From NCBI GenBank assembly GCA_947476745.1, contig CANJRG010000019.1, positions 1,556 to 65,555 of the forward strand: a stretch of 64,000 nt of DNA, given 5' to 3'. A program made the position numbers and the translations under genes. Under the pieces are notes generated by a model. The model made no database searches. It was not told where the DNA came from and saw nothing but the letters and a program-made list of their open reading frames with translations. This document shows, in pieces, positions 4,028 to 26,721 of the stretch (within the stretch, counting starts at the first letter, position 1; every line of letters begins with the position of its first letter). The DNA is from Acidimicrobiia bacterium. Lineage in GTDB: Bacteria; Actinomycetota; Acidimicrobiia; Acidimicrobiales; CAIXPF01.

Positions 4028-4038
4028 CCGGCCCCGTC

Positions 4039-7455: not shown

Positions 7456-7573
7456 GGGCGCTCTGGACCGGGAGGCCCGTTGACGGCGTCGGACCGCCCG
7501 GTACGTTGGCGGGACTGACGGTGACAGGACCGAGGCTGACGGGACTGAGCATGGCACGGGCACGGAGGAACGG

Positions 7574-9669: not shown

Positions 9670-9889
9670 TCTCACGGCTGTCCCTGCGACTCCCAGCCGC
9701 CCTGCCCGGCGGGTTTCCGTCCGATTCCTCTCGCGTTGCCCACTATTGGGGGAATGGGGGTAGGCCCGGAGTCACGGAACGAGCCCATCGTTACCCTGAA
9801 TCCAACGGCATGCGCCTCCCGGCTCGGAGGGGTGCGCACCTGGTTCCTGCCCTCGGGCGCGGACGGCCGGCGGAAGAAGGCGGACAGGT

Positions 9890-11611
9890 ATGGGTCATCC
9901 CGACGGTGGACAGGTCGAGTTGAGTCCCGGCGGTGGGCTTCGGCCCGCCGGCCGGCGGTCGGCACGGCTGCTGATGGTTGGGTTGGTGGCCGCCGGGGCG
10001 ATCCTGGTCCAGGCCGTGGTGGCCAACGGCCAGGAGTTGCCGACCCGTGAGCAACCGGCCGGAACGCTCGGGATGCGGGTGAGCGGCGGCAAGTTCAGCC
10101 GGGTCCGCTTCGACGCCGCCGAACGGTGGCTCGGCCGTCCGATCTCCTGGACGACGTTGTTCGCCGACCGGGCGTCGCCCACGGCGATGGTCGCCTCGGT
10201 CTGGGGGGAGATGGTCAACCCGGCCGGATCGCTGCCGGAGCTGGCGCGCCGTCTCGACGTGGTGATGACCGTTCCGTTGGCGTTTGGTACGGGCTCGTCT
10301 CGTGACGAGGCCGGCCGTGCGGCGATCCGGGCCAAGCTGCAGGAGACTGCGGCAGGCGCCTGGGACGACCAGTACCGCGTCGTGGCCCGCAACCTCGCGG
10401 TCGGTGGGTACGGCGATGCGGTGATCCGACTCGGTCACGAGATGACCGGACCGTTCTACCCCTGGTCATCCCAGGGCAATGCCGATGCGTACATCGCGGC
10501 GTTCCGGCACGTGCACGACGTGATGGCCGCAGTCGGGCCGCAGCTGCGTTTCGAGTGGAACGCCGCCCGCAACACCTTCGCCGAGTTCGGGCCGCCGTCC
10601 TATCCCGGTGACGCCTATGTGGACGTGATCGGCCTCGACGCCTATTACAACCCGTTGAAGGGCGACCCGGTGCCGCTCTCCGAGGACGTGTGGAACCGTC
10701 GGTATCTGAAGGTGCTCAACGCCCACCTGACCTTCGCCCAGGAGCACGGCAAGCCGGTGAGCTACGCCGAATGGGCCATCGGCGGCGTCGACGACCCGAC
10801 CTACGTCCAGCGGATGCGCGGCTGGTTCGCCGGCCTGCCCGCCGCCGGACCCGGCCGCCTGCTCTACCAGTCGTACTGGAACGTGACCAAGGACCACTAC
10901 GACCTGGCGCAGTTGCCCCGCAACGCCATGGCGTTCCGGGCGGCCTTCGGTGCGGCCAGGCCGTCGGGTCCTCAGGATATCTTCGCCGTCGAGGACGACG
11001 CAGGCAGCCCCGCCGGGACCCGGCCGCCGCCGACGTGGACGTCCTCCCCGGTCTCCACCGTGCCTCCTGGAACCACCGTGCCTCCTGGAACCACCGTGCC
11101 TCCTGGAACCACCGTGCCGCCAGCGACCACGACGTTCGCCGGGGGAGCGGGTCCCCGCATCCTGCTCGACGACGAGGTGAGCCACAGCACCGAGCGGACC
11201 GTGGAGATCCCTCTGGCGGATCCGATCGAGTGGACCGGGCCGGCGTCGCTGCGCAGTGCCTCCTTCCGGGTTGGTGCCGACGTGACCGAACGACGCTACG
11301 ACGGTCCGGTCGACCTGCAGATCTGCTTCTGGCAGGACGACCGTGCGGCCCAGGCGTGCGCCCGGCCGGTCCGACTCGAGGGTGCCGTCACCCAAGCCGA
11401 TCTGGCCCCGACCAGCGACTGGTGGACCGGCGACGGCTGGCAATGGGACCGGCCTGCGGAGACCATCCGGGTGCTGTTCAAGGACCCCGAGACGGGCACG
11501 TTGCTGAACGAGCAACTGTGTGGTTCGGTGTGCTTCAGCCGTGGGGACCTGCCGGCAGGGGTCCTGCTGAGCGCCCGTGTCTGGGTGGTGGCCACCCCGG
11601 CTGCCGGCTGA
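9890..11611 (+). CDS. Secreted glycoside hydrolase, clan GH-A, GH26-like (mannanase-type), with a Pro/Thr linker and an unknown C-terminal beta-domain
   Basis: It has a signal-like N-terminus. RLGHEMTGPFYPW is a candidate acid/base Glu motif and PVSYAEWA a candidate nucleophile Glu motif. The linker reads TVPPGTTVPPGTTVPPGTTVPPATTT. Confidence 0.6.
   Translation: MGHPDGGQVELSPGGGLRPAGRRSARLLMVGLVAAGAILVQAVVANGQELPTREQPAGTLGMRVSGGKFSRVRFDAAERWLGRPISWTTLFADRASPTAMVASVWGEMVNPAGSLPELARRLDVVMTVPLAFGTGSSRDEAGRAAIRAKLQETAAGAWDDQYRVVARNLAVGGYGDAVIRLGHEMTGPFYPWSSQGNADAYIAAFRHVHDVMAAVGPQLRFEWNAARNTFAEFGPPSYPGDAYVDVIGLDAYYNPLKGDPVPLSEDVWNRRYLKVLNAHLTFAQEHGKPVSYAEWAIGGVDDPTYVQRMRGWFAGLPAAGPGRLLYQSYWNVTKDHYDLAQLPRNAMAFRAAFGAARPSGPQDIFAVEDDAGSPAGTRPPPTWTSSPVSTVPPGTTVPPGTTVPPGTTVPPATTTFAGGAGPRILLDDEVSHSTERTVEIPLADPIEWTGPASLRSASFRVGADVTERRYDGPVDLQICFWQDDRAAQACARPVRLEGAVTQADLAPTSDWWTGDGWQWDRPAETIRVLFKDPETGTLLNEQLCGSVCFSRGDLPAGVLLSARVWVVATPAAG
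11057..11128 (+). repeat. 18-nt in-frame tandem repeat (ACCGTGCCTCCTGGAACC x3 plus one degenerate copy) encoding the (TVPPGT)n linker
   Basis: Three perfect consecutive copies were read directly from the sequence. Confidence 0.9.
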
Positions 11612-11700
11612 GGACGCGCACCGAACCGTCGCGGCCTTGCTAACGTCCGCAGTGGGTCAAACGTCCTGCTCGTGTCAGCGAGACCGGGCGGCGTTCGGCG

Positions 11701-14700
11701 GTGATGCAGGCGGGCGGGCAGGCGATGCGGGAGCGGACTCGCGCAGGGAAGGCGCGCGGCGGCGCGGTCCGGCGGTGGAGTGTTCGGGGTTCGGCGCTCG
11801 TCGTCGTCCTCGCTCTTGCCGTGGTGACCACGGCCACCGTGCTGGGTTCCCGTGCGGTCGAGGCGGCCAGCGGCCCGGCGACCCTCGGGATGCGCACTGC
11901 CGGCGGTCTGCCCACGGCGGAGCGCTTCGCTGCCGCCGAGGCCTGGTTGCGCCGTCCGCTCGCATGGACCGTGGTCATGACCGACCGGGACAGCCCGTCG
12001 GCCATGCGCAGCTCCACCTGGGCGCAGCTCGGACGGTCCGATGCAGTGCTGCCACGCCTGGCGGACCGGCTCGACCTCGACCTGACCGTTCCGCTGGCCT
12101 TCGGCACCGGCTCGGCCCGCGACAGCGACGGCCGGGCGGCGATCCGCGAGAACTTGCTCGAGACCGCGTCCGGACGTTGGGACGCCGATTACGCCTTCGT
12201 GGCCGACATGCTCGCCGCCTCCGGCTATGGCGATGGTGTCGTCCGTCTCGGTCACGAGATGACCGGCCCGTTCTACCCGTGGTCGGCCCAGGGCAATGGT
12301 GACGCCTACATCGCGGCGTTCCAGCACGTGCGCGACGTGATGCGGGCCGAGGCCCCGGGTCTGCGCTTCGAGTGGAATGCCGCCCGGAACACCTTCATCG
12401 CCCACGGGCCCTCCGCCTATCCCGGCGACGACTACGTCGACGTGATCGGGCTCGACGTCTACTACGAGCCGACCAAGGGCGACCCGGTCCCGCTCGACGA
12501 CACGGCGTGGGCCCGGCGGTACCAGCCGGTGCTGCAGGCCCACCTCGACTTCGCGGTGATGCACGGCAAGCCGGTCAGCTACGCCGAGTGGGCCAGCGGC
12601 GATGTCGACGATCCGCGTTTCATCGAGCGGATGCACCAGTGGTTCTCCGCACTGCCCGCCGTCGGGCCGGGCCGGCTGCTGTACCAGTCCTACTTCAACG
12701 TCACCCGCTCGACCTACGACCTGGCGGGCTATCCCCGCTCGGCCTGGGCCTACCAGCGCCTTTTCGGGGTGGTCGCCGACGGCACGCCGATGTACACCGG
12801 CGCCGGGTCCGACGAGGTGCTGCACCTGTATCGCAGCGGTACCGAGATCGGGACGATGACCCTGGCGACGGTGAGTTCCGCCGGAGACACCGTGGTCCGT
12901 CCCCGTGCCGCCGGGGTTGCCGACGGGCCGCAACCTGCCGGGTTCCGTCTGGGTAGGGCCGAGCCGGTCCTGCTCGACTTGAGCACCACGGCGACGTACT
13001 CCGGTCCGATCTCGGTGTGCCTGCGCTTCGCCCCCGAGGGGTTCGACCCTGCACAGACCCCGCAGATGCTGGCCGCCGACGCCACGACCGGAACCGGGGC
13101 GTGGGAGAACGTGACCCGTGCGCTCGACCGCGCCAGCGGCGTGGTGTGTGGTGCGCCGCCGAGCGTGGCGACGCTGGCGATCGGGACCGGCTTCGACACC
13201 GCCCCGGACGCCGCCGGCGTGGCCGCGTCGCTGGGCGAGGACACCGCAACCGAACTGACCCTCCGGGCGACCGACCGCGACGGCGACGACCTCGTCTTCG
13301 AGGTCGGCGATGCCGCCTCGGGCGCGGTCGGGGTGCCCTCGCCGCCGACCTGCAGCGGCACCTATCCCCGGGTGTGCACCGCCACCGTGGCGTACCGGCC
13401 CGACGCCGACTTCTTCGGTGCCGACGGGTTCGCGGTGCGGGCCGGTGACGGCCGGAACTGGTCGAACGCGGCCCGGGTGTCGCTGCAGGTGGAGGCGAGC
13501 CCCGACCTGCCCCGGGCGATCGCCGGCGAGGTGCACACCATGGAGGACCGCGTCGCGGTGCTCACCCTGACCGGACGCGACCCTGACGGGGGGACCATGG
13601 CCATCGAGCTCGTGGATGGCCCGCAGCATGGATCGGTGGGGCTTGCCGGAGCGCCGTCGTGCCAGACGGTGCTCGCCAGGACCTGCACCGCCGAGGTGCG
13701 CTACGTCCCGGCCGAGGACTGGTCGGGGACCGACGCGTTCAGCTGGGTCGCGCGCACGGCGGCCGGTGCGGTGACCGCGGCCGTCCCGGTGTTCGTCGAG
13801 CCGGTCAACGACGCGCCGAGCTGTGCTGCGCTGACCCTCGGCACCCCCGAGGACGGCGTGGGGGAGGTGCCGCTGCAGTGTGCTGACGTCGACGGCGATC
13901 CGCTGGGCTACCGGCTGGTGACGGAAGCCGGGCGCGGGTCACCGGAGATCGCCGGGTCGCAGCTGAGCTATCGGCCGCAGCCCGACTTCCACGGTGCCGA
14001 TACCTTCGCCTACGCGGCCTTCGACGGGCTCGACAGCTCGTTGCCGGCCACCGTGGGGGTCACCGTCGCCCCGGTGCAGGACGTCCCGCAGGCCGACGAT
14101 GTCCGGGCCACGGTCGTGGAGGACGTCGCGGGCCCCGTGGTGCTCGGAGGCACCGACGCCGACGGTGAGGCACTCGCCTTCGAGATCACCTCGCCGCCGA
14201 CCCACGGTACGCTCGACCCGGTCGGCGTGCCGGGTTGCAGCGGTGCCGGCCCGAGCGTGTGCCGGGCGTCGGTCCTCTACCGGCCGGAGGTGGGCTACGA
14301 CGGGGTCGACGCCTTCCGCTACCGGGTGAGCGACGGGATCGGCATGTCGGAGGAGCGCACGGCGGCGATCGAGGTCACCGCAGTGCTCGACCCGACGACG
14401 GTCACGGCGGTGGTGCCGGCGGTCGATGCCGACGGCAACGGGTTCAGCACCGTCTCGGCCGCGCTGGTTTCGGCCGATCCCACGTGCATCGCCGGCCAGC
14501 CGCTGCAGGTCGAGGCGTCCACCGACGGCAGCACCTGGACCGCGGTCGCCTCCGCCCGTACCGGCGCCGAAGGCCGGGCCGTGGCCGAGGTCGCGTTCGC
14601 ACCCGGGGTGTTCGAGGTGCGGGTGCGTTTTCCGGGCAACGCCGGCTGCGCGGCGAGCCTCGACCGGTCCTCGCCGCTCGCCGTCGGCGTGCCGGGTGAC

Positions 14701-15195
14701 CGCGTACTCGGCGGCGGCTGGTACCGGTCGCCCTTGTCGCCTGTCGTGCGTACCGGTTTCGCGGTCGCTGTGCCGGGTCTGTCCGGCCTGCCGACTCCGG
14801 TGAGGGCGACCGCTACAGACCTCAGCTCGCCCGGCGCGCTGCTGTGGATCCAGCCGGGCGCTCTCCGCCTGCGTAGTACGTCGATCGATGCGGTCCGCCC
14901 GGCGCGGTCGTGCAACACCGTGCGTTATCGCCGCTGCAGCGTGATCACCGGCAAGGCGCTGGTCTCCCGATGGCGGCCCGACGCAGCGGCACCGGACGGC
15001 GGCATGTGGTCGGCGGCCACCGACGTGGCCTTCACCGTCACCGTCGGCGACGGTGGTAGCGGCTCGAGCTGCACCGGGGCCGTCTGTTCTACGGTGGACC
15101 GCCCGGACGGCTTCGCGGCGAGCGTGTCGCCCAAGCTGTTCAGCGGCCAGGGCACACCGGTACCGCTGCTCAGCGGATCGTTGTCGCTCGGCTGA
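11701..15195 (+). CDS. Secreted GH26-like hydrolase paralog fused to about four cadherin-like tandem-95-type repeats and a C-terminal beta-rich region
   Basis: The N-terminal domain is collinear with the 9890 gene (RLGHEMTGPFYPWSAQGNGDAYIAAFQHV, PVSYAEWA). Repeats at about 13195-14385 show the VNDAP / D.DGD / Y.P..DF.G.D.F.Y pattern. Alternative starts are at 11704 and 11725. Confidence 0.65.
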   Translation: MMQAGGQAMRERTRAGKARGGAVRRWSVRGSALVVVLALAVVTTATVLGSRAVEAASGPATLGMRTAGGLPTAERFAAAEAWLRRPLAWTVVMTDRDSPSAMRSSTWAQLGRSDAVLPRLADRLDLDLTVPLAFGTGSARDSDGRAAIRENLLETASGRWDADYAFVADMLAASGYGDGVVRLGHEMTGPFYPWSAQGNGDAYIAAFQHVRDVMRAEAPGLRFEWNAARNTFIAHGPSAYPGDDYVDVIGLDVYYEPTKGDPVPLDDTAWARRYQPVLQAHLDFAVMHGKPVSYAEWASGDVDDPRFIERMHQWFSALPAVGPGRLLYQSYFNVTRSTYDLAGYPRSAWAYQRLFGVVADGTPMYTGAGSDEVLHLYRSGTEIGTMTLATVSSAGDTVVRPRAAGVADGPQPAGFRLGRAEPVLLDLSTTATYSGPISVCLRFAPEGFDPAQTPQMLAADATTGTGAWENVTRALDRASGVVCGAPPSVATLAIGTGFDTAPDAAGVAASLGEDTATELTLRATDRDGDDLVFEVGDAASGAVGVPSPPTCSGTYPRVCTATVAYRPDADFFGADGFAVRAGDGRNWSNAARVSLQVEASPDLPRAIAGEVHTMEDRVAVLTLTGRDPDGGTMAIELVDGPQHGSVGLAGAPSCQTVLARTCTAEVRYVPAEDWSGTDAFSWVARTAAGAVTAAVPVFVEPVNDAPSCAALTLGTPEDGVGEVPLQCADVDGDPLGYRLVTEAGRGSPEIAGSQLSYRPQPDFHGADTFAYAAFDGLDSSLPATVGVTVAPVQDVPQADDVRATVVEDVAGPVVLGGTDADGEALAFEITSPPTHGTLDPVGVPGCSGAGPSVCRASVLYRPEVGYDGVDAFRYRVSDGIGMSEERTAAIEVTAVLDPTTVTAVVPAVDADGNGFSTVSAALVSADPTCIAGQPLQVEASTDGSTWTAVASARTGAEGRAVAEVAFAPGVFEVRVRFPGNAGCAASLDRSSPLAVGVPGDRVLGGGWYRSPLSPVVRTGFAVAVPGLSGLPTPVRATATDLSSPGALLWIQPGALRLRSTSIDAVRPARSCNTVRYRRCSVITGKALVSRWRPDAAAPDGGMWSAATDVAFTVTVGDGGSGSSCTGAVCSTVDRPDGFAASVSPKLFSGQGTPVPLLSGSLSLG

Positions 15196-15407: not shown

Positions 15408-16385
15408 ATGCGAGTTCTTGTTGCAGGCGGTGGCGGTTTCATCGGTGGGCATCTGGTCCGCCGGCTCTTGGACGAGGGCCACTCGGTCCGTGCCGTCGAC
15501 CTCAAGCCGATGGACGAGTGGTGGCAGGTCCACCCCGGTGCCGAGAGCCTCGACCGGTTCGACCTGCGCCGACTCGGCCCGTGTGAGGCTGCAGTCGACG
15601 GCGTCGACCACGTGTACAACCTCGCGGCCGACATGGGCGGCATGGGGTTCATCGAGAACAACAAGGCCGCCTGCATGCTCAGCGTGATGATCAACACGCA
15701 CCTGCTCGAGACCTCGTTGGCCGCGAACGTGCAGCGGTTCTTCTACGCCAGCTCGGCCTGCGTGTACGCCGCCGAGCACCAGACCGATCCCAACGTCACC
15801 GCGCTGCGCGAGCAGGACGCCTACCCGGCCCAACCGGAGGACGGCTACGGCTGGGAGAAGCTGTTCTCCGAGCGGATGTGCCGCCACTTCCGTGAGGACT
15901 TCGGCCTCGAGACCCGGGTGGCCCGTTACCACAACGTGTACGGCCCCATCGGCACCTGGAAGGGTGGTCGCGAGAAGGCGCCGGCAGCGATCTGCCGCAA
16001 GATCGCCACGGCCGAGCTGACCGGCGACACCGTGATCGACGTGTGGGGCGACGGGCACCAGACCCGCAGCTTCATGTTCGTCGACGACTGTGTCGAGGGC
16101 ACTCGCCGCTTGCTCGACTCCGACATCATCGAGCCGCTCAACATCGGCTCGTCCGAGCTGGTCTCCATCAACCAACTGGTCGACCTGGTGGCCGACATTG
16201 CCGGCATCAGCGTGACCCGCCGCCACGACCTCAGCGCCCCGCAGGGTGTGCGTGGTCGAAACAGCGACAACACCCTGATCCTGGAGAAGATGGGCTGGGA
16301 GCCCTCGATCAAGCTGCGCGACGGCTTGACCCGCACCTACGACTGGGTTCGTGCCCAGGTCCGGGCGGAGCTGGCCCGGGGCTGA
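15408..16385 (+). CDS. gme: GDP-mannose 3,5-epimerase (SDR family)
   Basis: AGGAGGA lies upstream of the ATG at 15408. Rossmann motif GGGGFIGGHL is present. Long collinear matches to plant/bacterial GME as I recall it: YHNVYGPIGTWKGGREKAPAAICRK, WGDGHQTRSFMFVDDCVEG, GVRGRNSDN. Confidence 0.8.
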   Translation: MRVLVAGGGGFIGGHLVRRLLDEGHSVRAVDLKPMDEWWQVHPGAESLDRFDLRRLGPCEAAVDGVDHVYNLAADMGGMGFIENNKAACMLSVMINTHLLETSLAANVQRFFYASSACVYAAEHQTDPNVTALREQDAYPAQPEDGYGWEKLFSERMCRHFREDFGLETRVARYHNVYGPIGTWKGGREKAPAAICRKIATAELTGDTVIDVWGDGHQTRSFMFVDDCVEGTRRLLDSDIIEPLNIGSSELVSINQLVDLVADIAGISVTRRHDLSAPQGVRGRNSDNTLILEKMGWEPSIKLRDGLTRTYDWVRAQVRAELARG

Positions 16386-16431
16386 CCCCGCCGGCGCGTG
16401 GCGCGCCGTCGAGTCCAAGCGCTTCTGACTG

Positions 16432-16469
16432 CAGCCCGCCGGTTCTCCGGCGGGCTGTGTTCTGTTTCC
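16432..16469 (+). terminator. Rho-independent terminator after gme
   Basis: An 11-bp GC stem (CAGCCCGCCGG / CCGGCGGGCTG) with loop TTCT is followed by the T-rich TGTTCTGTTTCC. Confidence 0.6.
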
Positions 16470-16867: not shown

Positions 16868-19800
16868 ATGGCGACATTTGCGGCCAGACGGTCGGCGCTC
16901 GTGCGTCACCTGGGCATGGCGGGTCTGGTCCTCGCGGTGCTCAGCCTGTCGCTGATCACCGCAGCGGTGAAGAGCGAGCCGGCCGGTGCGGGCATCTTCT
17001 TCAACGATGTCGAGTACACCTACAAGGAGTACTGGGCCAGCCACGCCACCTTCACCGCCGGCTGCGGCGAACACGCGGTGTCCGGCAGCAGCTGGTACGT
17101 CGAGCCGCTGAACTGCGCCAAGTCGATCACCCTCAACATCCCCGACAACGTGCAGGGCGCCATCGCCGCGGTGCTCTACGTCGACCTGTGGCGTAACGGG
17201 ACCGCCCGCTCGGCCCGCCTCAACATCAACAACGGTCCGGAGATCCGCCCCGAGCGGGGCAGCCAGAACAGCCGTGACCCGTACACCACGCCGATCCCGT
17301 TGACGCAGCTCCGGCAGGGGACGAACACGATCAGCCTGCAGGAGACCACCGGCGCCTACCACCTTCACGACCTGATGGTCCGGGTGTACTACAGCCCCAC
17401 GCAGCCGCTCATCGCCGGGCCGGGCAGCGACGTCACCCCGCCGAGCGGTTCGCTCGATCTCATCAGCGCCGGCGGAACCAACCGCACCCCGGCGGAGGGC
17501 GGGACCCTCAACGTCGACAACAACCAGATCACGCTGTCCGCCGGCGCCAACGATGCCGCCTACGTCGAGTTCCACGGCTACTACGACGGCTTCGACGAGG
17601 ACAACGACGGCCAGACGCTCGACTGGCACAACTTCACCCGCAACAACTGGGGCCCGGGCGGAACGCTGGCCAAGGCGACCGGCGCCACCATCGGCCACAT
17701 CGGCACCGACAGCGTCGCCCCCTACCAGGTGACGTGGAACCTCCCCGAGGTCAAGAACCAGTCCGGGGTGAAGTTCAAGGTGCGCATCGTCGACAACGCC
17801 GGCAACGTGCGGGAGGCCCCGGGCGGTGTCTCGGCCCCGTTCACGCTCGCCAGATCCTACCTGGTGGAGAACTACACGATCCCGAACTTCGACGATGCCG
17901 GCATGTTCTTCAACGGCACGGCGCCGCAGCTCGCGACGCGATCCATCACGTTGCCGTCCGATCTCAGCAACGTCAGCCGGGCGTACCTCCTGGGCAACTT
18001 CTGGGAGAACCCGGGCATCTCGCTCAACGACAACACCTACTTCCGGGCCTTCACCAACGCCGAGGACACCTGGCAGACCTCGAAGCGCGAGCTCGCCGTC
18101 AACCAGTTGAAGCCCGGGGTCAACACCATCCGGTACAGCTTCGTGCCGCCGGGGTTCGGCCAGCTCATCGAGAAGCCCGGCCCGATGGTGGTCATCCACC
18201 GCACCGCGCCGGCCGGCTCGCCGGCCATCACCACCCAGCCGGTGGCGACGGTGGTCAGCCAGGGCCGTCAGGCGACCTTCACGGCCACTGCGTCGGGAGC
18301 GCCCGATCTTGCCTACCAGTGGCGCAAGAACGAGGTGGCGATCCCCGGGGCCACCGACCTCTCGTTCACGACCCCACCATTGCAGCCCGCCGACAGCGGC
18401 AGCGCCTACAGCGTGGTGGTGACCAACGGGCAGGGTTCGGCGACCAGCAGCTCGGCCAAGGCGACCGTGCTGCGGACCGGTGTGGCCACCGGAGCGTGGT
18501 GGAACGCCGGCTGGGATTTCCGGGTGCCGGTGACGGTCTCGCCCGGTGACACCGCCCGGACCAACAAGATGGTCGAGGTGCTGCTCAACTTCACCGAGTT
18601 GATGCGCACCGCCGGGAGCGGCGGGCCGAGCTTCGACCCCAACTCGGTGCGGGTGGTCGAGGTCGACGGGTCGGGCAACGTCATCGACGCCGGCGTGGCC
18701 CGCCAGGTCGATCCGGCCGAGGGCTACAACGCGGCGACCAACGCCAAGGCCAACGTCATCTTCCTGATGACCGGTACGACGAACCCCGAGACGTCGCGGA
18801 CCTACCACATCTACTTCGACAAGACGAGCAAGAACATCCCCGCCCCGACAGTGGCGCCGCTCGTCACGGTGACCGACAACGTGGTCGACCGGGGATTCCC
18901 GGCCTACCAGTTCAACGGCCAGGGATCGACCTGGGTCTACCACAAGGAGGGCGGCGGCTTCGCCAAGCTGCTCGACGCCCAGGGGATCGACTGGATCGAC
19001 TGGACGTCGGCGACCGGTGCCGCCGGTGACTACCGCGGGGTGCCCAATGCCGTCATGCCCGGCAACGGCGGGTTCTTCCACCCCGGGCGTGCCGGCGCCG
19101 GCACCTCGAAGATCGTGTCGAGCGGCCCGCTGAAGATCACCATCGAGACCGAGAGCTCCGACAAGCTCTGGGTCGCCCGCTGGGAGGTCTACCCGACCTA
19201 CGCCACCTTCAGCATGGTGCGGGCGGCCAAGCTCTTCTGGTTCCTCTACGAGGCCGTACCCGGCGGTACGTTGGACTTCAACGGCAACGACGTCGTGGTC
19301 CGTTCCGACGGCGTGTCGGTGAACATGGCCGGGAGCTGGCACACCGACCTCCCGGGCCAGGAGTGGGCCTACGTCGGCGACAAGGCCAAGGGCCGTTCCT
19401 TCTACGTGGCGCATCACCAGGACGAGGGCTCGGTCGAGTCGTACTGGCTGCTCCAGAACCAGATGCCGGTCCTCGGCTTCGGCCGCGGTGGCAACGCCCT
19501 GAACGAGTCCTTCCTCGATCCGACGGTCAATGGCCAGCCGCAGACCTTCACGGTGGGCCTGGTCGACTCGACCGACTTCTCGGTCGCCGGCAACGGCATC
19601 CGGGCGGCGTACCGGCCACTCGTGCTGCAGACCGGTGGCGCCGAGTTCAACGGGGTGTTCACCGGGCTGCGCAGTGACGACTTCTCCAGCGGCTCGCTGA
19701 ACCCGATGTGGACAATCTACGACCCCGTCGGTGACACCGCCGTCAGCACGACCGGCACCGACGTGCAGCTGGCCATTCCCGGCGTTGGTACCCACGATCT

Positions 19801-22800
19801 GTGGACCGGACGAAACAAGGCCCCGCGTCTGCTCCAGACCGTTTCGAACGGTGACGTCGGGATCGAGGCCAAGTTCAACTCGACGCCAACCCAGCGCTTC
19901 AGCGGCCATGGCCTGGTGTTCCAGGCCGACGCCAACAACCTGATCCGCTTCGGGGTCGAGAACACCGGCACGACGACGCGGGCGACGGCCACGGTCATGG
20001 TCAACGGCCAGGCGCAGATGCTGCAGGCCAAGTACCTCGAATCCGGTGTGCCGCAGTACCTGCGGGTGCTCCGTACCGGGAACTCGTGGGTGTTCGGTCG
20101 CTCCTTCGACGGCATCAACTGGATCAACCTGCCGCCGGTGACCTTCTCCCTGGTGGTAAGCGCGGCCGGGGTCTATGCGTTGTCCCACGGCACCCCCGGC
20201 CCGGCGTACACCGCATCGCTCGACTACATCGAGAACTACGCCCAGGCGCCCATCGTCGACGACGCGCCCAGGATGAGCAACGTCATCATCACGCCGAAGG
20301 CCCACCGGGCCGTGGTCTCGTGGACCACCAACGTGCCGGCCACGACCACGGTGCGGCACGGCTCGTCCGCCCTCGTCACGAACACCGTCGAGGACGCCAC
20401 GCTCACGACCAACCACCAGGCCACGGTGGACTTCCTGGCCTGCAACACGCCGTACTACCTGCAGCCGGTCACCGCCGCCGCCGACGGGGTGACGACGGAG
20501 GGCACGGTCACCCTGTTCTCCACCACGACCTGCACCGAGGCGTTCTCCGACGATTTCTCGGGACCGTTGGCCGATCCGCGGTGGATGAGCGCCGACCCGC
20601 TCGGCGACACCTTGACCACCCGAACGGGAACGAACGCGTTGTTCTCGATCCCCGCCGGGGTCGATCACAACCTCTACGCCGGCGCCAACCGGGCCCCGCG
20701 TCTGCGCCAGGACGGCCCCGAGGGGGACTTCTCCGTCGAGGCCAAGTTCGATTCGGTGCTCACCGCCGGCTACCAGATGCAGGGCATAGCCGTGGAACAG
20801 AACACCAACTCGTTCCTGCGGGTGGAGATCCACCATGACGGCACGGGTCCCAAGGCCTATGTCGTCGCGGTGATCGACGGGGTGGCCACCACACTGCTCA
20901 ACCCGGTGACGCTGCCGGCGAGCACGACGCACTATGTGCGCCTCGCCCGGGTCGGCAACGCCTGGACCGTGGGCCACTCGGTGAACGGCACCACGTGGAA
21001 CACCGTTGGCACCTTCAACCTGTCGTTGCGTTCGACCTACCTGTCCCCGTACATCGGCACGACGTCCACCGGTGGTGCGTCGACGCCGGCGTTCGTGGGG
21101 TCGATCGACTACTTCTTCAACACCGCAACCCCGATCGTGCCGGAGGACGGTGGTGCCGGTCCGGACACCACCCCGCCGGTCATGAGCAGCATCGTCGCCA
21201 CCACCAACCCGGCCAATGCGCAGGAGGCGACGGTCACCTGGACCTCGAACGAGCTCGCCTCGAGCCGGGTCGAGTGGGGTCTGACGACCGCTTACAGCCT
21301 GCCGGTGGTGACCGACAACACCGCGGTGCTCACCCACAGCGCCAAGCTCGCGCCCATCTCCTGCGGGAAGACCTACAACTTCCGGGTCGTCGGCAACGAC
21401 GCGGCAGCCAACACCGGTGCGAGCATCAACCAGACCTTTGTCGGTCCGGCATGTCCGGCCGGGCCCGTTTCCGACGACTTCAGCTCGGCGGCGCTCAACC
21501 AGCGCTGGCTGGTGGTGGACAAGGTCGGTGACGGCACGGTCACCCAGTCCGGTGGTCTGCTCAAGCTGAAGGTGCCGGCGGCGTCCCGCCACGATCTGGC
21601 CCCGACCAACAGCAAGGCCCTCCGGGTCCTCGAGGCGATCACCAACACCGATCTCGACGTCGAGGTGGGCTTCGAGTCGGTGGTCAACCTGCCGACCCAG
21701 ATCCAGGGTCTGGTCTTCGAGGCCGACAACGGGAACCTGGTCCGCTTCGACCTGTCCTCGACCGGGACCGAGACCAAGGCCTTTGTCGGCCGCCTGAACG
21801 GTACCGGCTTGGCGCAGCTCGCCTACGTGACGGTGCCGGGCTCGTCGGCGAGCCGGTTGCAAGTGTCCCGCGTCGGTTCGGTGTGGACGTTCGGGCACTC
21901 CTCCGACGGGACTACCTATACGACGATCTATAGCGGCGATCTGGGCACCTTCGCCCCCTCCCGGGTGGGTCCCTTCGCCGGCAACGCCAACGCCGTGCTG
22001 GGCTCGGTTCCGCCGCACACCGCGGTGGTGGACTACTTCTTCAACTCGGCGTCGCCCATTGTTCCCGAGGACGGAGGCTTCGTCGGCGCCCCCGAGTTCG
22101 AGCTGTACAGCGGCTCGTCGATGACGTTCGGCACGGTGGGTCTGACCCAGCCCGACATCAACATCCTCGGGCGGGTCATCGACCCCGACGGGGTGTCGTC
22201 GCTGACCTACAGCATCAACGGCGGTGCGCCGGTCGCCATGGGCGTCGGGCCGGACTCCCGGCGGCTGACCACGCCGGGCGAGTTCAACGCGGCCATCGTG
22301 GCGACCGACCTGCAGGCCGGGCTGAACACGGTGACCCTGCGGGCGGTGGACGCCTATTCGCACACGTCCTCGACGACCGTCGAGGTCACCTGGACGCCGG
22401 GTAACACCTGGCCGATGCCGTACAACGTCGACTGGTCCAACACCGCCAACCTGCTCGACGTCGTGCAGCCGATCGACGGCAAGTGGGCCATCGAGGGCGA
22501 CACGGTGCACAACACCGAGGTCGGCTACGACCGCATCCTCACCCTCGGCGACGACACCTGGAAGTCCTTTGAGGTCACCGTGCCGATCACGGTCAACTCG
22601 GTCGATCCGGCCGGCAACGCACCGCCCAACGGGGGACCGGCCATCGGCTTCATCCCCCACTGGAAGGGCCACATCGACGCCGAGTTCAGCCAGCCCCACT
22701 GGGGGTTCGCCGGCCAGCTCGGCGGCTGCGTGTGGTACCGCTACAAGGCCGACGGCATCAGCGAACGACTCGAGATCCGCGACTCCCAGGCGGTGCTGAC

Positions 22801-25177
22801 CGCGCAGGACCTCAGCGGCAAGACGCTGACGGCAGGGGTCACCTACCTGTTCAAGATGCGGGCCGAGTCCACGATCGGCAACGGGCCGCTCTACCAGCTC
22901 AAGGTGTGGCCGGCGAGCGATCCCGAGCCGACGCGTTGGGACGTGATCAGCCAGCTGCCGCCGGGTGGGCCCGATTCGGGTTCCCTGGTCCTGGTGGCGC
23001 ATTACGTCGACGCCAGCTTCGGTGACATCTCCGTGACCAAGCTGACCGCGGCCATGCCCACCATCAGCCCGGCCGGTGGCACCTTCGCCGGTCTGTCCAA
23101 GGTCACGCTGATCGCGGAGACGCCGGGTTCGGAGATCCGTTACACGCTCGATGGTTCCGCTCCCGGGCCGGATTCGACGCTGTACACCGAGCCGTTCTTC
23201 CTGTCGCAGTCTGCGGTGGTGCGGTCCAAGGCGTTCAAGGTCGGCAACGAGCCGAGCGCCGAGCGTCAGGCCACCTTCACCATCACCGCTGCACCGAACC
23301 GGGTGACGGACTCCCTGCGTGCCCTGTACCACTTCAACGAGGGCGCCGGGACGACGGCGTACGACGGCTCCGGGGTCAGCCCGGCGGCGAACCTGCGGAT
23401 CGAATCCGGCTCGGTGAGCTGGCTGCCGTCCGGTGCGCTGCGTCTGGACTCGGCGTCGGTGATCCGTACCGCCGGGGATGTCGGCAAGATCAGCTCGGCC
23501 GTGGCCGCCAGCGGGGCCTACAGCTTCGAGGCCTGGGTCGAACCGAAGGACCTCCTCCAGGGCCCGTCGGCACTGGTCGGCATCGGCCCGGTCTCCGGGA
23601 CCGAGCGCAATGCCTCGCTGGCCCAGAACGGCGTCGACTACCGCTCGGTGCTGCGGACCGGGACGACCGGACTCAGCGGCGCAGCGCAGAGCGCTCTGGC
23701 TGCGGCGCAGCAGTCGTTGCACCACGTCGTGTTCACCCGGGACTCTTCGGGCAACACCAAGATGTGGATCGACGGGGTGCAGGTCGCCGGCGGCACCCAA
23801 CGTGGGGTGCTGACCAACTGGAACACCGCGTTCCGGCTCGGGGTCGGCGGCATGCCGAACGGTACGGAGTCGTGGCTGGGTGATCTCTACCTCGTAGCGG
23901 TGTACAGCCGGCCGCTCACCCAGAACCAGGTGCTGCAGAACTTCCGGGCCGGCCCGTTCCCGCCGGTGCCCAACACCGCCCCGGTGGTGGCCGCCGGCCC
24001 GGCGGTGTCGATCCCGGTGGGCCAGAACGTCCTACTCGGCGGCACGGTGAGCGACGACGGCTTCCCCAAGCCGCCGAACGCCACCTCCGTCACCTGGTCG
24101 AAGGTGTCGGGTCCGGGCACGGTGACCTTCGCCTCGCCGAATGCCACGGACACACTGGCCTCCTTCTCGGCGGCCGGCTCCTACGTGCTGTGGCTCACCG
24201 CTTCGGACGGCGCACTGAGCAGTTCCGCCACCGTGGCGGTCACAGTCACCGCGGCCATCACCACGGTGCCGAACCCCGTCATCACGCCGGCTGCGGGTAC
24301 GTACTACGGCTCGGTCGCTGTGACGATCTCCAACAGCCTCAGCGGGGCGGAGATCCGCTACACGACCGACGGGTCGGCGGTGACCGGTACCTCGCCCCTC
24401 TACACGGCACCGGTCACCCTCACCTCCTCGGCGACGGTGCGGGCGAAGGCCTTCAAGAGCGGCCTCACCGAGTCGTCGCCGGTCAACGCGGCCTACACGA
24501 TCGCCGCAGTGCCACCCCGGGTGACTGCCGGTCTGGTGGCCTTCTACGACCTCGAAGAGGGCACGGGCGCCACCATCGGGGACACGTCTGGCGTGGGGAC
24601 GGCCGTCGACCTGACCGTGGCCGATCCCACCCGTACCTCCTGGGTCGCCGGAGGTCTGCGGTTCGACCAGGCCACCGTCGCACTGACCCCGGGGAGCGGG
24701 GCCAAGGTGACCGACGCGGTCAAGGCGTCGGGTGCGATGACCGTCGAGGCGTGGATCACCCCGGCGAACGTCACGCAGAGCGGGCCGGCGATGATCGTGA
24801 GCATGGCGGGCAGTTCGGCCAGGAACTGGGCATTGGGACAGACCGGCTCGAGTTACTCGACCAAGTTCCGCACCAGTACCACGACGGCGGACGGTGAGGT
24901 GGCCACCGCCACCCTCGGCGTCACGGCCGCCCGCCAGCACGTCGTCTACACCCGGGATGCGGCCGGTGCGGTCCGGGTCTACCTCAACGGTGCCCTGGTC
25001 ACCTCGCGGACCCTGACCGGCAACCTGTCCGGCTGGGTGTCGACGCAACGGCTCTCCTTCGGCGCCGATCGCGACGGGACCAAGCCGTGGCTGGGAACCA
25101 TCTACACGGTCGGTATCTACAGCCGTGCCCTTTCCGCAGTCGAAGTCAGTCAGAACTTCGCCGCTGGTGAGGCCTGA
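16868..25177 (+). CDS. Giant (2769 aa) secreted multidomain carbohydrate-binding protein
   Basis: It has an RBS and a signal peptide. Approximate domain positions:
- Ig I-set-like domain, about 18221-18470
- DUF2341-like start WWNAGWDFRVPVTV
- three paralogous ConA-like units beginning DDFS. and ending (L/I/V)DY(I/F)(E/F)N, at 19675-20243, 20549-21128 and 21470-22052, interleaved with FN3-like units
- two CHB_HEX_C-like plus LamG modules, at 23053-23960 and 24265-25174. Confidence 0.85.
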   Translation: MATFAARRSALVRHLGMAGLVLAVLSLSLITAAVKSEPAGAGIFFNDVEYTYKEYWASHATFTAGCGEHAVSGSSWYVEPLNCAKSITLNIPDNVQGAIAAVLYVDLWRNGTARSARLNINNGPEIRPERGSQNSRDPYTTPIPLTQLRQGTNTISLQETTGAYHLHDLMVRVYYSPTQPLIAGPGSDVTPPSGSLDLISAGGTNRTPAEGGTLNVDNNQITLSAGANDAAYVEFHGYYDGFDEDNDGQTLDWHNFTRNNWGPGGTLAKATGATIGHIGTDSVAPYQVTWNLPEVKNQSGVKFKVRIVDNAGNVREAPGGVSAPFTLARSYLVENYTIPNFDDAGMFFNGTAPQLATRSITLPSDLSNVSRAYLLGNFWENPGISLNDNTYFRAFTNAEDTWQTSKRELAVNQLKPGVNTIRYSFVPPGFGQLIEKPGPMVVIHRTAPAGSPAITTQPVATVVSQGRQATFTATASGAPDLAYQWRKNEVAIPGATDLSFTTPPLQPADSGSAYSVVVTNGQGSATSSSAKATVLRTGVATGAWWNAGWDFRVPVTVSPGDTARTNKMVEVLLNFTELMRTAGSGGPSFDPNSVRVVEVDGSGNVIDAGVARQVDPAEGYNAATNAKANVIFLMTGTTNPETSRTYHIYFDKTSKNIPAPTVAPLVTVTDNVVDRGFPAYQFNGQGSTWVYHKEGGGFAKLLDAQGIDWIDWTSATGAAGDYRGVPNAVMPGNGGFFHPGRAGAGTSKIVSSGPLKITIETESSDKLWVARWEVYPTYATFSMVRAAKLFWFLYEAVPGGTLDFNGNDVVVRSDGVSVNMAGSWHTDLPGQEWAYVGDKAKGRSFYVAHHQDEGSVESYWLLQNQMPVLGFGRGGNALNESFLDPTVNGQPQTFTVGLVDSTDFSVAGNGIRAAYRPLVLQTGGAEFNGVFTGLRSDDFSSGSLNPMWTIYDPVGDTAVSTTGTDVQLAIPGVGTHDLWTGRNKAPRLLQTVSNGDVGIEAKFNSTPTQRFSGHGLVFQADANNLIRFGVENTGTTTRATATVMVNGQAQMLQAKYLESGVPQYLRVLRTGNSWVFGRSFDGINWINLPPVTFSLVVSAAGVYALSHGTPGPAYTASLDYIENYAQAPIVDDAPRMSNVIITPKAHRAVVSWTTNVPATTTVRHGSSALVTNTVEDATLTTNHQATVDFLACNTPYYLQPVTAAADGVTTEGTVTLFSTTTCTEAFSDDFSGPLADPRWMSADPLGDTLTTRTGTNALFSIPAGVDHNLYAGANRAPRLRQDGPEGDFSVEAKFDSVLTAGYQMQGIAVEQNTNSFLRVEIHHDGTGPKAYVVAVIDGVATTLLNPVTLPASTTHYVRLARVGNAWTVGHSVNGTTWNTVGTFNLSLRSTYLSPYIGTTSTGGASTPAFVGSIDYFFNTATPIVPEDGGAGPDTTPPVMSSIVATTNPANAQEATVTWTSNELASSRVEWGLTTAYSLPVVTDNTAVLTHSAKLAPISCGKTYNFRVVGNDAAANTGASINQTFVGPACPAGPVSDDFSSAALNQRWLVVDKVGDGTVTQSGGLLKLKVPAASRHDLAPTNSKALRVLEAITNTDLDVEVGFESVVNLPTQIQGLVFEADNGNLVRFDLSSTGTETKAFVGRLNGTGLAQLAYVTVPGSSASRLQVSRVGSVWTFGHSSDGTTYTTIYSGDLGTFAPSRVGPFAGNANAVLGSVPPHTAVVDYFFNSASPIVPEDGGFVGAPEFELYSGSSMTFGTVGLTQPDINILGRVIDPDGVSSLTYSINGGAPVAMGVGPDSRRLTTPGEFNAAIVATDLQAGLNTVTLRAVDAYSHTSSTTVEVTWTPGNTWPMPYNVDWSNTANLLDVVQPIDGKWAIEGDTVHNTEVGYDRILTLGDDTWKSFEVTVPITVNSVDPAGNAPPNGGPAIGFIPHWKGHIDAEFSQPHWGFAGQLGGCVWYRYKADGISERLEIRDSQAVLTAQDLSGKTLTAGVTYLFKMRAESTIGNGPLYQLKVWPASDPEPTRWDVISQLPPGGPDSGSLVLVAHYVDASFGDISVTKLTAAMPTISPAGGTFAGLSKVTLIAETPGSEIRYTLDGSAPGPDSTLYTEPFFLSQSAVVRSKAFKVGNEPSAERQATFTITAAPNRVTDSLRALYHFNEGAGTTAYDGSGVSPAANLRIESGSVSWLPSGALRLDSASVIRTAGDVGKISSAVAASGAYSFEAWVEPKDLLQGPSALVGIGPVSGTERNASLAQNGVDYRSVLRTGTTGLSGAAQSALAAAQQSLHHVVFTRDSSGNTKMWIDGVQVAGGTQRGVLTNWNTAFRLGVGGMPNGTESWLGDLYLVAVYSRPLTQNQVLQNFRAGPFPPVPNTAPVVAAGPAVSIPVGQNVLLGGTVSDDGFPKPPNATSVTWSKVSGPGTVTFASPNATDTLASFSAAGSYVLWLTASDGALSSSATVAVTVTAAITTVPNPVITPAAGTYYGSVAVTISNSLSGAEIRYTTDGSAVTGTSPLYTAPVTLTSSATVRAKAFKSGLTESSPVNAAYTIAAVPPRVTAGLVAFYDLEEGTGATIGDTSGVGTAVDLTVADPTRTSWVAGGLRFDQATVALTPGSGAKVTDAVKASGAMTVEAWITPANVTQSGPAMIVSMAGSSARNWALGQTGSSYSTKFRTSTTTADGEVATATLGVTAARQHVVYTRDAAGAVRVYLNGALVTSRTLTGNLSGWVSTQRLSFGADRDGTKPWLGTIYTVGIYSRALSAVEVSQNFAAGEA

Positions 25178-25272: not shown

Positions 25273-26721
25273 GTGGACATAGCGGAACTTCGCTACATCC
25301 TGAGTCGTTATGCGCCGATCGGCATCGCCACGTTCGCCGTGTGCATGCTCTTGGGTATGGCTGCGGCGTACGTGCCGGCACGGACCTATCAGACCCATGC
25401 GACCGTGACCATCGAGCCGGGAGGCCCGTCCGGGCCGACCACGCCGACCACCGCCTCGATTAGCCAGGTGAACTTCTCCCTCCTGGCGTTGCAGGAGAGG
25501 GCCTCGGCCGAGACCCTCAAGACCGCCGCCGCCGAGGACGTGCCGGTGGAGTTGCGGGATGAGCAGGTGCGGGTCGCGGCGGTGGTCGAGACCAGCGTGC
25601 TCAAGATCACCGGCACGGGCCATTCGCCGGAGGCCGTCGCCGCCTACGTGAACGCCATGGCGCAACGACTCGCCGGGGCGACCGTCCCGCTGGTCGTGGT
25701 GCGGCTCACCGTGCTCGATCCCGCACCGGTACCGATCCAGGCAATCTCGCCGAATGTGAAGGCGACCCTGCTCGCAGCAGCCGTGTTCGGTTTGCTCAGT
25801 GCGGTGTTCGTGTGCCTGCTGGTGCGCAAGGTGCGGGCCGCCTCCGACCCCGAGACCGTGGTCCGCGAGCGGTTCGGAGCTCCGGTGCTCGGTGAGATCC
25901 CGCGGCTGGGCGCGCTGCGCCGCGGTCGCAGTGACGTCGTGTCGATGCTGGATTCCGGTGCACCCGCAGAGCTGCGGGTGGCGTTCGAACAGGTTCGGAC
26001 GAACCTGGAGATCCGCCTGGCGCAGCTGCGCGGTACGGGCCTGGCGGTGGTCGCCGCCGAAGCCGGCGTCGGGTGTTCGACGGTTGCCGCGGGTCTTGGC
26101 TACTCGTTTGCGTCGGTGGGCCGCGACGTCGTGCTGATCGACTCCGACCTCCGTGTCCCGAGCCTGGCCAAGGTGTTCGGGGTGCCCGACGACCACGGGC
26201 TCGGGGCCCGCGCCGCGGTGGGCGGATCGCCCAGGACGCAGGCCACCCGGTACGCCGGTCTGCGGGTGTTGCCCGCCGGGGAGCTGTCCGGTCGTGCCGC
26301 CGACGTGGTCAGCGCCAGCCTTCCCCGTGCCGTCGAGGAGTTGCGCGACGACGCACGGCTGCTGTTGATCGACACGCCCCCGCAGCGGGAGGCGCCCGAG
26401 GCGGCGTTGGCCGCCGCGCTGGCCGGGGCGGTGGTGCTGGTGGTCGGTCCGAAGCCGGTCGATCAACTCGACGCGGCGTCGACGATCCGGCGCCTCGAGG
26501 AGTCGGGCGCGGTCCTGCTCGGTGTGGTGGTCAACGGCGTCTCGCTGCGCCGGTTCCGGCGCGCCCACCGGGTCCGCCGGCCCGAGATCGCACGGAGCAC
26601 GGTGTCCGTCGACGAGCTCGAGCGGCGCCTGGCCGACGTCAACGATCTCACCGACGACGCCGCGAAAGGCGACGGCAGCGGAGAGCAGACCAGCCTGAGC
26701 GGTCTGACTCGTCATCGCTGA
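25273..26721 (+). CDS. Polysaccharide co-polymerase (Wzz-like N-terminus) fused to a BY-kinase/MinD-like P-loop domain with degenerate Walker A
   Basis: It has an N-terminal TM plus periplasmic domain, a second TM, and then AAEAGVGCST (Walker A lacking Lys), VLIDSDLR (Walker A') and LLLIDTPP (Walker B). The GTG start at 25273 is inferred; the ORF is open from 25186. Confidence 0.7.
   Translation: MDIAELRYILSRYAPIGIATFAVCMLLGMAAAYVPARTYQTHATVTIEPGGPSGPTTPTTASISQVNFSLLALQERASAETLKTAAAEDVPVELRDEQVRVAAVVETSVLKITGTGHSPEAVAAYVNAMAQRLAGATVPLVVVRLTVLDPAPVPIQAISPNVKATLLAAAVFGLLSAVFVCLLVRKVRAASDPETVVRERFGAPVLGEIPRLGALRRGRSDVVSMLDSGAPAELRVAFEQVRTNLEIRLAQLRGTGLAVVAAEAGVGCSTVAAGLGYSFASVGRDVVLIDSDLRVPSLAKVFGVPDDHGLGARAAVGGSPRTQATRYAGLRVLPAGELSGRAADVVSASLPRAVEELRDDARLLLIDTPPQREAPEAALAAALAGAVVLVVGPKPVDQLDAASTIRRLEESGAVLLGVVVNGVSLRRFRRAHRVRRPEIARSTVSVDELERRLADVNDLTDDAAKGDGSGEQTSLSGLTRHR

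Follow-up and report, generated by a model that had tools for sequence, protein, structure and literature searches.

We analysed a stretch of 64,000 nucleotides from an Acidimicrobiia bacterium (GenBank assembly GCA_947476745.1, contig CANJRG010000019.1, positions 1,556 to 65,555 of the forward strand), hereafter the window, and examined the product of one very long open reading frame (ORF) in it, a protein of 2769 amino acids (aa) encoded among genes for exopolysaccharide (EPS) synthesis. The reading that we favour, with a probability of roughly 0.5, is that this giant protein is an EPS-associated, multivalent lectin that serves as a scaffold or organiser of the matrix. The protein would be exported, unanchored, and made together with the Wzc-like export regulator encoded next to it. 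Its nine or more lectin-type modules (two galactose-binding-like jelly-rolls, three DUF1349-type ConA-like units, two LamG and two CHB_HEX_C) would bind the cluster's own polymer multivalently, and the Ig, FN3 and PKD modules would act as spacers. By cross-linking or ordering the polymer at the cell surface, the whole would form a scaffold for the matrix. Two single-copy, conserved modules, a core domain (aa 541–925) and a module that we call UnkD (aa 1881–2063), may be the specific functional core, the part by which the chain is recognised or handled. Pfam matches, internal repeats, and AlphaFold2 (AF2) and Foldseek results for the N-terminal head all point to the lectin-type character of the modules; that they bind sugar, and that the cluster's polymer is their ligand, is what we infer from this.

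The giant gene, its orthologues and the predicted export of its product

The ORF (16868..25177, plus strand) runs from an ATG as one uninterrupted frame, and its GC contents at codon positions 1, 2 and 3 are 0.60, 0.53 and 0.92, the signature of coding sequence in this genome. Because the GC content of the window is about 70%, long spurious ORFs abound in it, and one of 2321 aa overlaps the giant gene in antisense. Since the GC3 of 0.92 sits in the plus frame, we judged this antisense ORF to be a high-GC artefact. A purine-rich AAGGCGG lies 8–14 nt upstream of the ATG. A preliminary description of this DNA had proposed a single 2769-aa ORF preceded by a ribosome-binding site, and both proposals agreed with these results.

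Copies of the gene were found in other assemblies. The 90%-identity cluster of the giant protein contained 11 variants of 2768–2769 aa from independent NCBI, ENA and Logan assemblies, and a protein from a public collection (P0145) was identical to the window protein at 2763 of 2769 residues. Beyond this cluster, full-length co-linear orthologues were found in an Acidimicrobiales metagenome-assembled genome (MAG; locus L004, a 2820-aa ORF with 46.8% identity over 2800 aa) and in an Ilumatobacteraceae MAG (L006, 46.2%), together with a partial orthologue in L005; the orthologues in L001, L004, L005 and L006 have 46–50% identity to the window protein. That the frame is open over 8.3 kb at 46–47% identity argues that the giant protein is under selection as a single protein. 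In L001, the closest database match for both the head and the core, the orthologous gene is broken into about ten called genes. The glycosyltransferase (GT) genes that adjoin it also look split, so the fragmentation likely reflects frameshift errors of assembly, not a real split gene.

One alternative is that the ORF is spurious, is a gene in decay or does not yield a single product. It could draw on the readiness of high-GC genomes to yield long spurious ORFs, the antisense frame being an example, and we found no other support for it. Set against the codon-position bias (GC3 0.92 against GC2 0.53), the 11 intact variants, the co-linearity of orthologues over 2800 aa, the Pfam domains along the full length of the protein and the probable assembly origin of the sole fragmented copy, its probability is close to negligible.

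We also compared the window with its near-identical counterpart, L084, which carries P0145. The first 2250 residues are identical, and the six amino-acid differences all lie at aa 2254–2688 (23627–24931), in the C-terminal part with the LamG, PKD and CHB modules. This clustering may be due to chance, because the nucleotide differences total nine, a number too small for estimating the ratio of nonsynonymous to synonymous substitution (dN/dS).

The neighbourhood of the gene is conserved as well. In L004, L005 and L006, genes for a sulfotransferase, a GT2 glycosyltransferase, a GH26 protein and a bacterial tyrosine kinase (BY-kinase) adjoin the orthologue. The fragmented orthologue of L001 stands among GT2, sulfotransferase, GT and GH26 genes and one for a ParA-type kinase, followed by genes for Bac_transf, a CysQ-like phosphatase and a PAPS_reduct-family protein, and L084, from the same species as the window, has an identical gene order. 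All five loci thus retain the orthologue together with sulfotransferase, GT2, GH26 and BY-kinase genes. As this neighbourhood persists around orthologues only 46–50% identical, it supports the assignment of the giant protein to the EPS cluster. The preliminary description had likewise considered it part of the EPS system and not a generic adhesin, a view in line with the kept synteny, the true GDP-mannose 3,5-epimerase encoded upstream and the lack of a terminator-like site before the kinase gene.

The giant protein is predicted to be secreted. The signal peptide region (aa 1–41, 16868..16990) has a basic n-region followed by the sole hydrophobic segment of the protein (aa 9–37) and then AGA|GIFFND; this call is heuristic, being based on a hydrophobicity window and an AXA-like site. 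The orthologues have the same N-terminal layout, with a mature end at a conserved G(I/V)(F/Y)FND, for example VQA|GVYFND. No LPXTG-type motif was found in the protein, and outside aa 9–37 there was neither a second hydrophobic segment nor a C-terminal hydrophobic tail of the kind expected for a sortase or exosortase (PEP-CTERM) anchor; the C-terminus falls within the last LamG domain. These features, which match the signal peptide and the missing cell-wall or membrane anchor of the preliminary description, make it well supported that the protein is a Sec-exported one without a covalent anchor.

Modules of the giant protein

The giant protein divides into about 19 all-beta modules, all encoded on the plus strand. 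Its head (aa 42–447), for which Pfam has no family, was modelled by AF2 as jelly-roll, Ig-like domain and jelly-roll (pLDDT 87.7). The two outer units, N1 (aa 42–180, 16991..17407), which is galactose-binding-domain-like, and N3 (aa 331–447, 17858..18208), are paralogous (hhalign 95%, E 4e-8), so that the two N-terminal jelly-rolls suspected earlier are borne out by both profile comparison and predicted fold. Foldseek matched the head to the carbohydrate-binding domains of BcsB, to reelin repeats and to GH2 sugar-binding domains, with TM-scores that were low owing to the domain arrangement. The middle unit, N2 (aa 181–330, 17408..17857), is an Ig-like beta-sandwich in the AF2 model with a weak Big_7 match, and it is the segment best conserved between orthologues (64–68%). 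Its acidic loop, (Y)VEFH.YY.GYDEDNDG...DWHN, hardly varies and resembles a calcium site.

The head is followed by an Ig module (aa 448–540, 18209..18487) in which Pfam placed Ig_2 and I-set at aa 452–534 (E 2e-9 and 8e-9). When taken in isolation, the segment exceeded the gathering cut-offs of both hidden Markov models (HMMs), scoring 38.1 against 27 for Ig_2 and 36.0 against 23.7 for I-set, and Ig-like domain proteins in the PDB matched it at E 1e-25; an I-set-like domain had been expected here. Next comes the core, in two parts. Part A (aa 541–665, 18488..18862) is a beta-sandwich opening with WWNAGWDFRVPVTV, delimited by family searches and AF2, and part B (aa 666–925, 18863..19642) is a galactose-mutarotase-like beta-supersandwich of an unannotated family, recognised by AF2 and Foldseek.

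Three ConA-like units of the DUF1349/GH43_C2 type follow the core: unit 1 at aa 930–1128 (19655..20251), unit 2 at aa 1227–1428 (20546..21151) and unit 3 at aa 1521–1738 (21428..22081). As internal repeats they span aa 924–1130, 1227–1430 and 1517–1737 (about 200 aa each), with mutual identities of 32–38% and E-values down to 1e-30. The whole protein scored 58.0 bits for DUF1349 (cut-off 32.4) and 47.8 for GH43_C2 (cut-off 22.7), both of the ConA-like clan. Unit 1 alone scored just under the cut-off for DUF1349 (28.9) and above it for GH43_C2 (23.2 against 22.7); units 1 and 2 are assigned from Pfam and internal repeats, and unit 3 through its paralogy to them (E 1e-24 to 1e-28). Single-sequence PDB searches with ConA-like unit 2 and with the second LamG copy gave no match. 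Units 1 and 2 are each followed by an FN3-like unit, a (aa 1129–1226, 20252..20545; internal repeats and hhalign) and b (aa 1429–1520, 21152..21427; with a weak Pur_ac_phosph_N match), which are paralogous (hhalign 99.9%). Hence, of the arrangement described earlier, the three paralogous ConA-like units stood, but the FN3 unit after the third did not: by hhalign, the module after unit 3 is Ig-like and unrelated to the FN3-like units.

This module, IgX (aa 1739–1880, 22082..22507; Big_7 E 0.04, hhalign), is joined to UnkD (aa 1881–2063, 22508..23056). Among 81 core-domain proteins taken from genomic loci, the two always travel together, in 15 proteins from bacteria and Methanoperedens. UnkD, of about 180 aa, is an unannotated conserved module with 16 invariant positions (GYDR...W.GH...QP...K...W...GS). 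Its profile matched nothing in PDB or Pfam, hhalign found no similarity to the ConA-like, LamG or N-terminal jelly-roll units, and a database search added only eight further members, none informatively annotated. A further ConA-like domain had been placed at this position, and we could not verify it, given that neither Pfam nor PDB nor profile comparison revealed similarity to the ConA or LamG units.

The C-terminal part is dominated by a duplicated module of CHB_HEX_C_1/Fn3_assoc and Laminin_G_3, as had been described, whose copies (aa 2064–2362 and 2470–2767) share 40–47% identity. Copy 1 consists of a CHB_HEX_C_1/Fn3_assoc domain (aa 2064–2140, 23057..23287) and a Laminin_G_3 domain (aa 2141–2365, 23288..23962), both seen by Pfam and as internal repeats. 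Copy 2 consists, by Pfam, of the same domains at aa 2469–2545 (24272..24502) and aa 2546–2769 (24503..25177, with the stop codon). Laminin_G_3 (PF13385) reached 125.7 bits over two stretches against a cut-off of 27.6, the better of them covering positions 5–151 of the 151-position model at aa 2610–2761; CHB_HEX_C_1 (PF13290) reached 114.8 bits (cut-off 22) and Fn3_assoc 83.8 (cut-off 23), again in two stretches each. Between the copies lies a K319L-like PKD module (aa 2366–2468, 23963..24271; Pfam match at aa 2377–2460) that was missing from the earlier domain list. NCBIfam returned nothing meaningful for the whole protein or for the core.

Conservation between orthologues was highest in the head (52–68%), UnkD (54–60%) and the core (46–52%), and lowest in the LamG, CHB and PKD modules (32–43%), which suggests that the functional heads are conserved while the binding tail evolves fast and duplicates. 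The head was found in 8 of the 81 core-domain proteins and DUF1349-type ConA units in 23, and the order of modules is shuffled among Actinomycetota, Gammaproteobacteria, Deltaproteobacteria, Bacteroidota and Methanoperedens.

The core family and the surrounding gene cluster

A search with aa 545–935 yielded 66 matches down to E 1e-23, none of them with a Pfam domain over the core region. A profile of 55 members then recovered 2294 representatives at E<=1e-3, and 923 at E<=1e-30, from the 50%-identity clusters of 1.84 billion proteins, and a scan of species-representative genomes revealed at least 597 loci with core-family genes. The family occurs in Acidimicrobiia, Chloroflexota, Bacteroidota, Ignavibacteria, Gammaproteobacteria, Deltaproteobacteria, Nitrospirota, Planctomycetota and Acidobacteriota, as well as in Candidate Phyla Radiation (CPR) bacteria (Dojkabacteria and Saccharibacteria) and Methanoperedens archaea; Thiocapsa roseopersicina DSM 217 (L047) is a cultured carrier. 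It had no match in Pfam or NCBIfam, and its profile found none among all PDB chains even at E<=10, confirming that the uncharacterised region of about 350 aa pointed out earlier is an unannotated conserved family. The family has 13 invariant positions, including Q, D, R, D, R and N, and about 50 near-invariant ones, including H, Y, E and R, at 35–50% identity across phyla, and the core is present as one copy per protein in all 81 locus proteins. An N-terminal hydrophobic segment was found in 146 of 195 members, and by this measure the family is mostly secreted; in short members of about 500–700 aa the signal peptide leads straight into the core, with CBM4_9, Calx-beta, PEP-CTERM, type IX secretion system (T9SS) or dockerin-type modules behind it.

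The preliminary description had called the start of this region DUF2341-like. The WWNAGWDFRVPVTV motif on which this drew is real and is conserved family-wide as WWxxxWxYRxP, whereas the DUF2341 HMM (PF10102) matched neither aa 540–935 (E<=1) nor the 55 relatives (E<=0.1), and we therefore rejected, at the level of the HMM, a DUF2341 identity for the core. In a Foldseek search of viral predicted structures the core gave weak matches only, among them a viral DUF2341 protein (E 3.8e-3, query TM-score (TMq) 0.23).

The AlphaFold model of the core (pLDDT 93, pTM 0.92) shows a beta-sandwich of about 120 aa followed by a beta-supersandwich of about 260 aa. At the top of the Foldseek matches in the PDB, all with modest TM-scores, stood GH38 alpha-mannosidases through their C-terminal beta domains (E 2.5e-10, TMq about 0.5). 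The PL26 exo-rhamnogalacturonan lyase 5xqg matched with TMq 0.55, the aligned PL26 domain not being assigned. Further matches included the mutarotases 3mwx, 4bze, 3nre and 2htb (target TM-score (TMt) 0.46–0.48, with 0.48 for 3mwx and 4bze), alpha-galactosidase N-domains, beta-galactosidase domain 5 and the YidC P1 domain. The Foldseek probability was 1.0 for the mutarotases, the GH38 C-terminal domains, beta-galactosidase domain 5 and YidC P1. Because the model superposes on members of the galactose-mutarotase-like fold, we take the core to be a sequence family that is new within it. This fold almost always handles carbohydrates, usually in an accessory and occasionally in a catalytic role, as in mutarotases and PL4. 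For aa 541–925 we found no sequence match to a PL or GH catalytic domain in Pfam, NCBIfam or PDB, and the top Foldseek matches were the GH38 accessory beta domains; the suggestion that aa 560–930 may be catalytic is thus left without fold support.

To see what accompanies the core, all ORFs within 10 kb of core genes at about 80 loci from many phyla were clustered and counted. The most recurrent families were a sugar C-methyltransferase type (Methyltransf_23 with Methyltransf_14; 21 loci), FG-GAP repeat proteins (16), two GT2 families (12 and 9), an NAD-dependent sugar epimerase (9), a Bac_transf priming transferase (7) and a Wzx-type flippase (6). These neighbours are biosynthetic and not catabolic; the argument for enrichment is qualitative and turns on how rare genes of these kinds are in genomes. 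We observed that core genes directly adjoin large FG-GAP-repeat (beta-propeller) genes in Chloroflexota, Dojkabacteria, Acidobacteriota, Pirellulales and Methanoperedens (L007, L008, L019, L027, L031, L036, L043, L044, L045, L049, L051, L066, L071, L073 and L080), and this looks like a conserved gene pair. We also observed, in Bacteroidota and Ignavibacteria, three to four tandem core-family paralogues inside EPS-type loci with Bac_transf, two GT2 and Wzx genes (L017, L028, L037, L062, L064 and L068). Neither the C-methyltransferase nor the FG-GAP partner of the core family was found in the window.

In the window, the genes from 3 to 26721 all lie on the plus strand. They begin with the C-terminal part of Wzx (3–719) and a GT2 gene, continue at 1602..15195 with sulfotransferase, GT4, Wzy, GT2, sulfotransferase, GT2 and GT4 genes, a GH26-like gene and a second GH26-like gene with Big_9/cadherin repeats, and end with an epimerase gene of the short-chain dehydrogenase/reductase (SDR) type, the giant gene and a gene for a Wzc-like chain-length determinant/tyrosine autokinase (25273..26721). 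Both sulfotransferases are Sulfotransfer_3 proteins. The upstream epimerase (gme, 15408..16385) is a genuine GDP-mannose 3,5-epimerase (GME), matching PDB 8sg0 at E 4.5e-106 and Arabidopsis GME (2c59) at 8e-104 over its full length, and from this family membership the polymer probably contains L-galactose or L-gulose. The giant gene thus does lie between gme and the co-polymerase gene, as described earlier. Taken together, the genes form a Wzx/Wzy-dependent cluster for a probably sulfated EPS, probably with L-galactose or L-gulose, in an actinobacterium whose nearest orthologues (Acidimicrobiales, Ilumatobacteraceae) and 70% GC mark it as Acidimicrobiia-like.

A terminator-like hairpin with a 13-bp stem, 10 GC pairs and a T-rich tail follows gme (16430..16459, plus strand), and we take a separate transcription unit, with a leader of about 400 nt, to begin after it. 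No terminator-like site was found between the giant gene and the Wzc-like gene, and the two are probably co-transcribed. Rfam gave no match to a riboswitch or any other RNA family in 16300–16950, and no sigma-70-like promoter was found in the leader (16460–16867); in the region of this leader, 1 of 480 positions differs from L084.

Some other features of the cluster and its surroundings were observed. In each of the two adjacent GH26-like genes (9800–15195), the Pfam GH26 match covers about 80 residues of the 311-position model. The second (about 1164–1183 aa) has four Big_9/tandem-95/cadherin-like repeats and therefore appears to encode a second large secreted protein of the cluster. After the cluster, at 27087–28649, there are a plus-strand gene for an Rrf2-type regulator, as called in L084, and a minus-strand gene of the TauE/SafE sulfite-exporter family, which may be relevant to the sulfur supply for a sulfated polymer.

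Known systems, alternative readings and significance

Giant secreted LamG/ConA-like/Ig proteins are common, and the C-terminal two thirds of the window protein resemble them in having the same modules (PF13385, PF13290 and DUF1349, PF07081), tandem-duplicated and above Pfam cut-offs. It differs from them in its N-terminal third (aa 42–925) and in aa 1739–2063, for which Pfam and NCBIfam have no family, and in belonging, as a conserved part, to a Wzx/Wzy EPS cluster. Matrix lectins encoded with an EPS and binding that polymer are a known kind, as with RbmC and Bap1 of Vibrio cholerae and its VPS, or CdrA and LecB of Pseudomonas and Psl. By analogy, the giant protein most likely works as these do, being secreted, EPS-encoded and multivalent in polymer binding, although it shares no sequence or domain homology with them, has no beta-prism or beta-propeller and is much larger. 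BcsB, a periplasmic subunit of cellulose synthase, was matched repeatedly by the head model (E about 2e-6, probability about 1) through its jelly-roll carbohydrate-binding domains; however, the TM-score was about 0.2, and the giant protein has neither flavodoxin-like domains nor a C-terminal membrane anchor, so the resemblance is one of single jelly-rolls and not of the assembly. Similarly, the GH38 C-terminal domains, PL26 and the mutarotases gave the best Foldseek matches of the aa 545–935 model, but at 9–12% identity; the core has no GH38 catalytic domain, and its invariant residues do not correspond to known catalytic motifs.

Among characterised systems the nearest is wps-1 of Actinoplanes missouriensis, which comprises Wzx/Wzy/Wzz, two sulfotransferases, GT2, GH26 and a methyltransferase, is required for formation of the sporangium matrix and, its authors argue, produces a sulfated EPS (PMC13390465). 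The cluster in the window has the same core set. It lacks the methyltransferase and the kinase-like gene of wps-1, which for its part has neither a giant lectin protein nor GME.

Several points weigh against the lectin scaffold. The lectin assignments are at the level of fold or family, and adhesins that bind proteins contain LamG, ConA-like and Ig modules, too. Many core-family members lie outside any glycan cluster, and the lack of a giant protein in wps-1 implies that it is not a universal part of such pathways. The organism is known from metagenomes only. Finally, a core that is single-copy, with 13 invariant positions and conservation across phyla, fits an enzyme better than a lectin.

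This last point leads to the reading of the giant protein as an extracellular polymer-processing enzyme whose core, with or without UnkD, cleaves or modifies the nascent EPS while the lectin modules only target it; a lyase, hydrolase or epimerase on the mutarotase-like supersandwich, as in PL4, would be the candidate. EPS clusters commonly encode a polymer-trimming enzyme, such as PslG, AlgL or BcsZ, and an enzymatic core would be in keeping with this. So would its single copy and its conservation across bacteria and archaea, with invariant Q69, D71, R100, D159, R179 and N183 and near-invariant H194, Y250, E251 and R329 (alignment numbering), and the layout of the short members, with signal peptide, core and CBM4_9 or dockerin modules and the like, which is usual for secreted carbohydrate-active enzymes. 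In protein numbering, which is the alignment position plus 544, the conserved residues include Q613, D615, R644, D703, R723, N727, H738, Y794, E795, W833 and R873. PL26, moreover, gives the best TM-score (0.55), and the matched galactose mutarotases are themselves enzymes. Yet the strongest fold matches are the non-catalytic GH38 C-terminal beta domains, PL4 structures do not appear among the top 50 Foldseek matches, and Pfam, NCBIfam and PDB hold no sequence link to a CAZy-type family. Two GH26-like trimming candidates are already present in the cluster, and the window showed no gene of a uronic-acid pathway, which would have spoken for a lyase. We regard a polymer-processing enzyme as possible but well short of probable. 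The broader proposal that the core founds a new, widespread family of extracellular carbohydrate-active enzymes acting on nascent EPS (lyase, hydrolase or polymer-level epimerase), accompanied in the giants by IgX–UnkD and DUF1349-type units as a module set shuffled between phyla, is doubtful.

It is unlikely that the giant protein is instead a generic surface adhesin or a foraging protein for foreign glycans or surfaces (polymers of plants, algae or other microbes), perhaps capturing nutrients together with the GH26-like enzymes and adjacent to the EPS genes by accident. LamG, ConA-like, CHB_HEX_C, PKD and Ig modules are indeed typical of adhesins and of the accessory parts of degradative enzymes, the gene has its own leader with a terminator-like site upstream, some core-family members occur in unrelated contexts, and GH26 enzymes are mainly mannanases and lichenases (PMC13390465). 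Accidental adjacency is hard to reconcile with a sulfotransferase/GT2/GH26/BY-kinase neighbourhood kept around 46–50% identical orthologues, with the absence of a terminator-like site before the Wzc-like gene, and with a core family that repeatedly adjoins biosynthetic genes (GT2, Wzx, Bac_transf, sugar methyltransferase and epimerase) and not catabolic ones; in wps-1, moreover, GH26 is a functional part of the EPS cluster (PMC13390465).

Nothing found so far is mechanistically surprising. What is new is the conserved integration of a giant protein into a Wzx/Wzy cluster of Acidimicrobiia with sulfotransferases and GME, a large unannotated family of mutarotase fold tied to glycan-biosynthesis loci, and a second unannotated module, UnkD. 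Bacterial sulfated EPS has been regarded as essentially cyanobacterial, and a 2026 study proposes actinomycete examples (PMC13390465). The Wzx/Wzy cluster of the window, which is of Acidimicrobiia type and encodes two sulfotransferases and a true GME, is an addition to these, and in this lineage a multi-lectin protein of 2769 aa is a conserved part of it. If the giant protein is only a lectin scaffold, the result is an ordinary one, yet it would help to annotate many 'hypothetical' giant proteins of environmental genomes. The core family, with its confident predicted fold and its adjacency to glycan genes, is a target in the search for a new EPS-binding module or a new family of carbohydrate-active enzymes.

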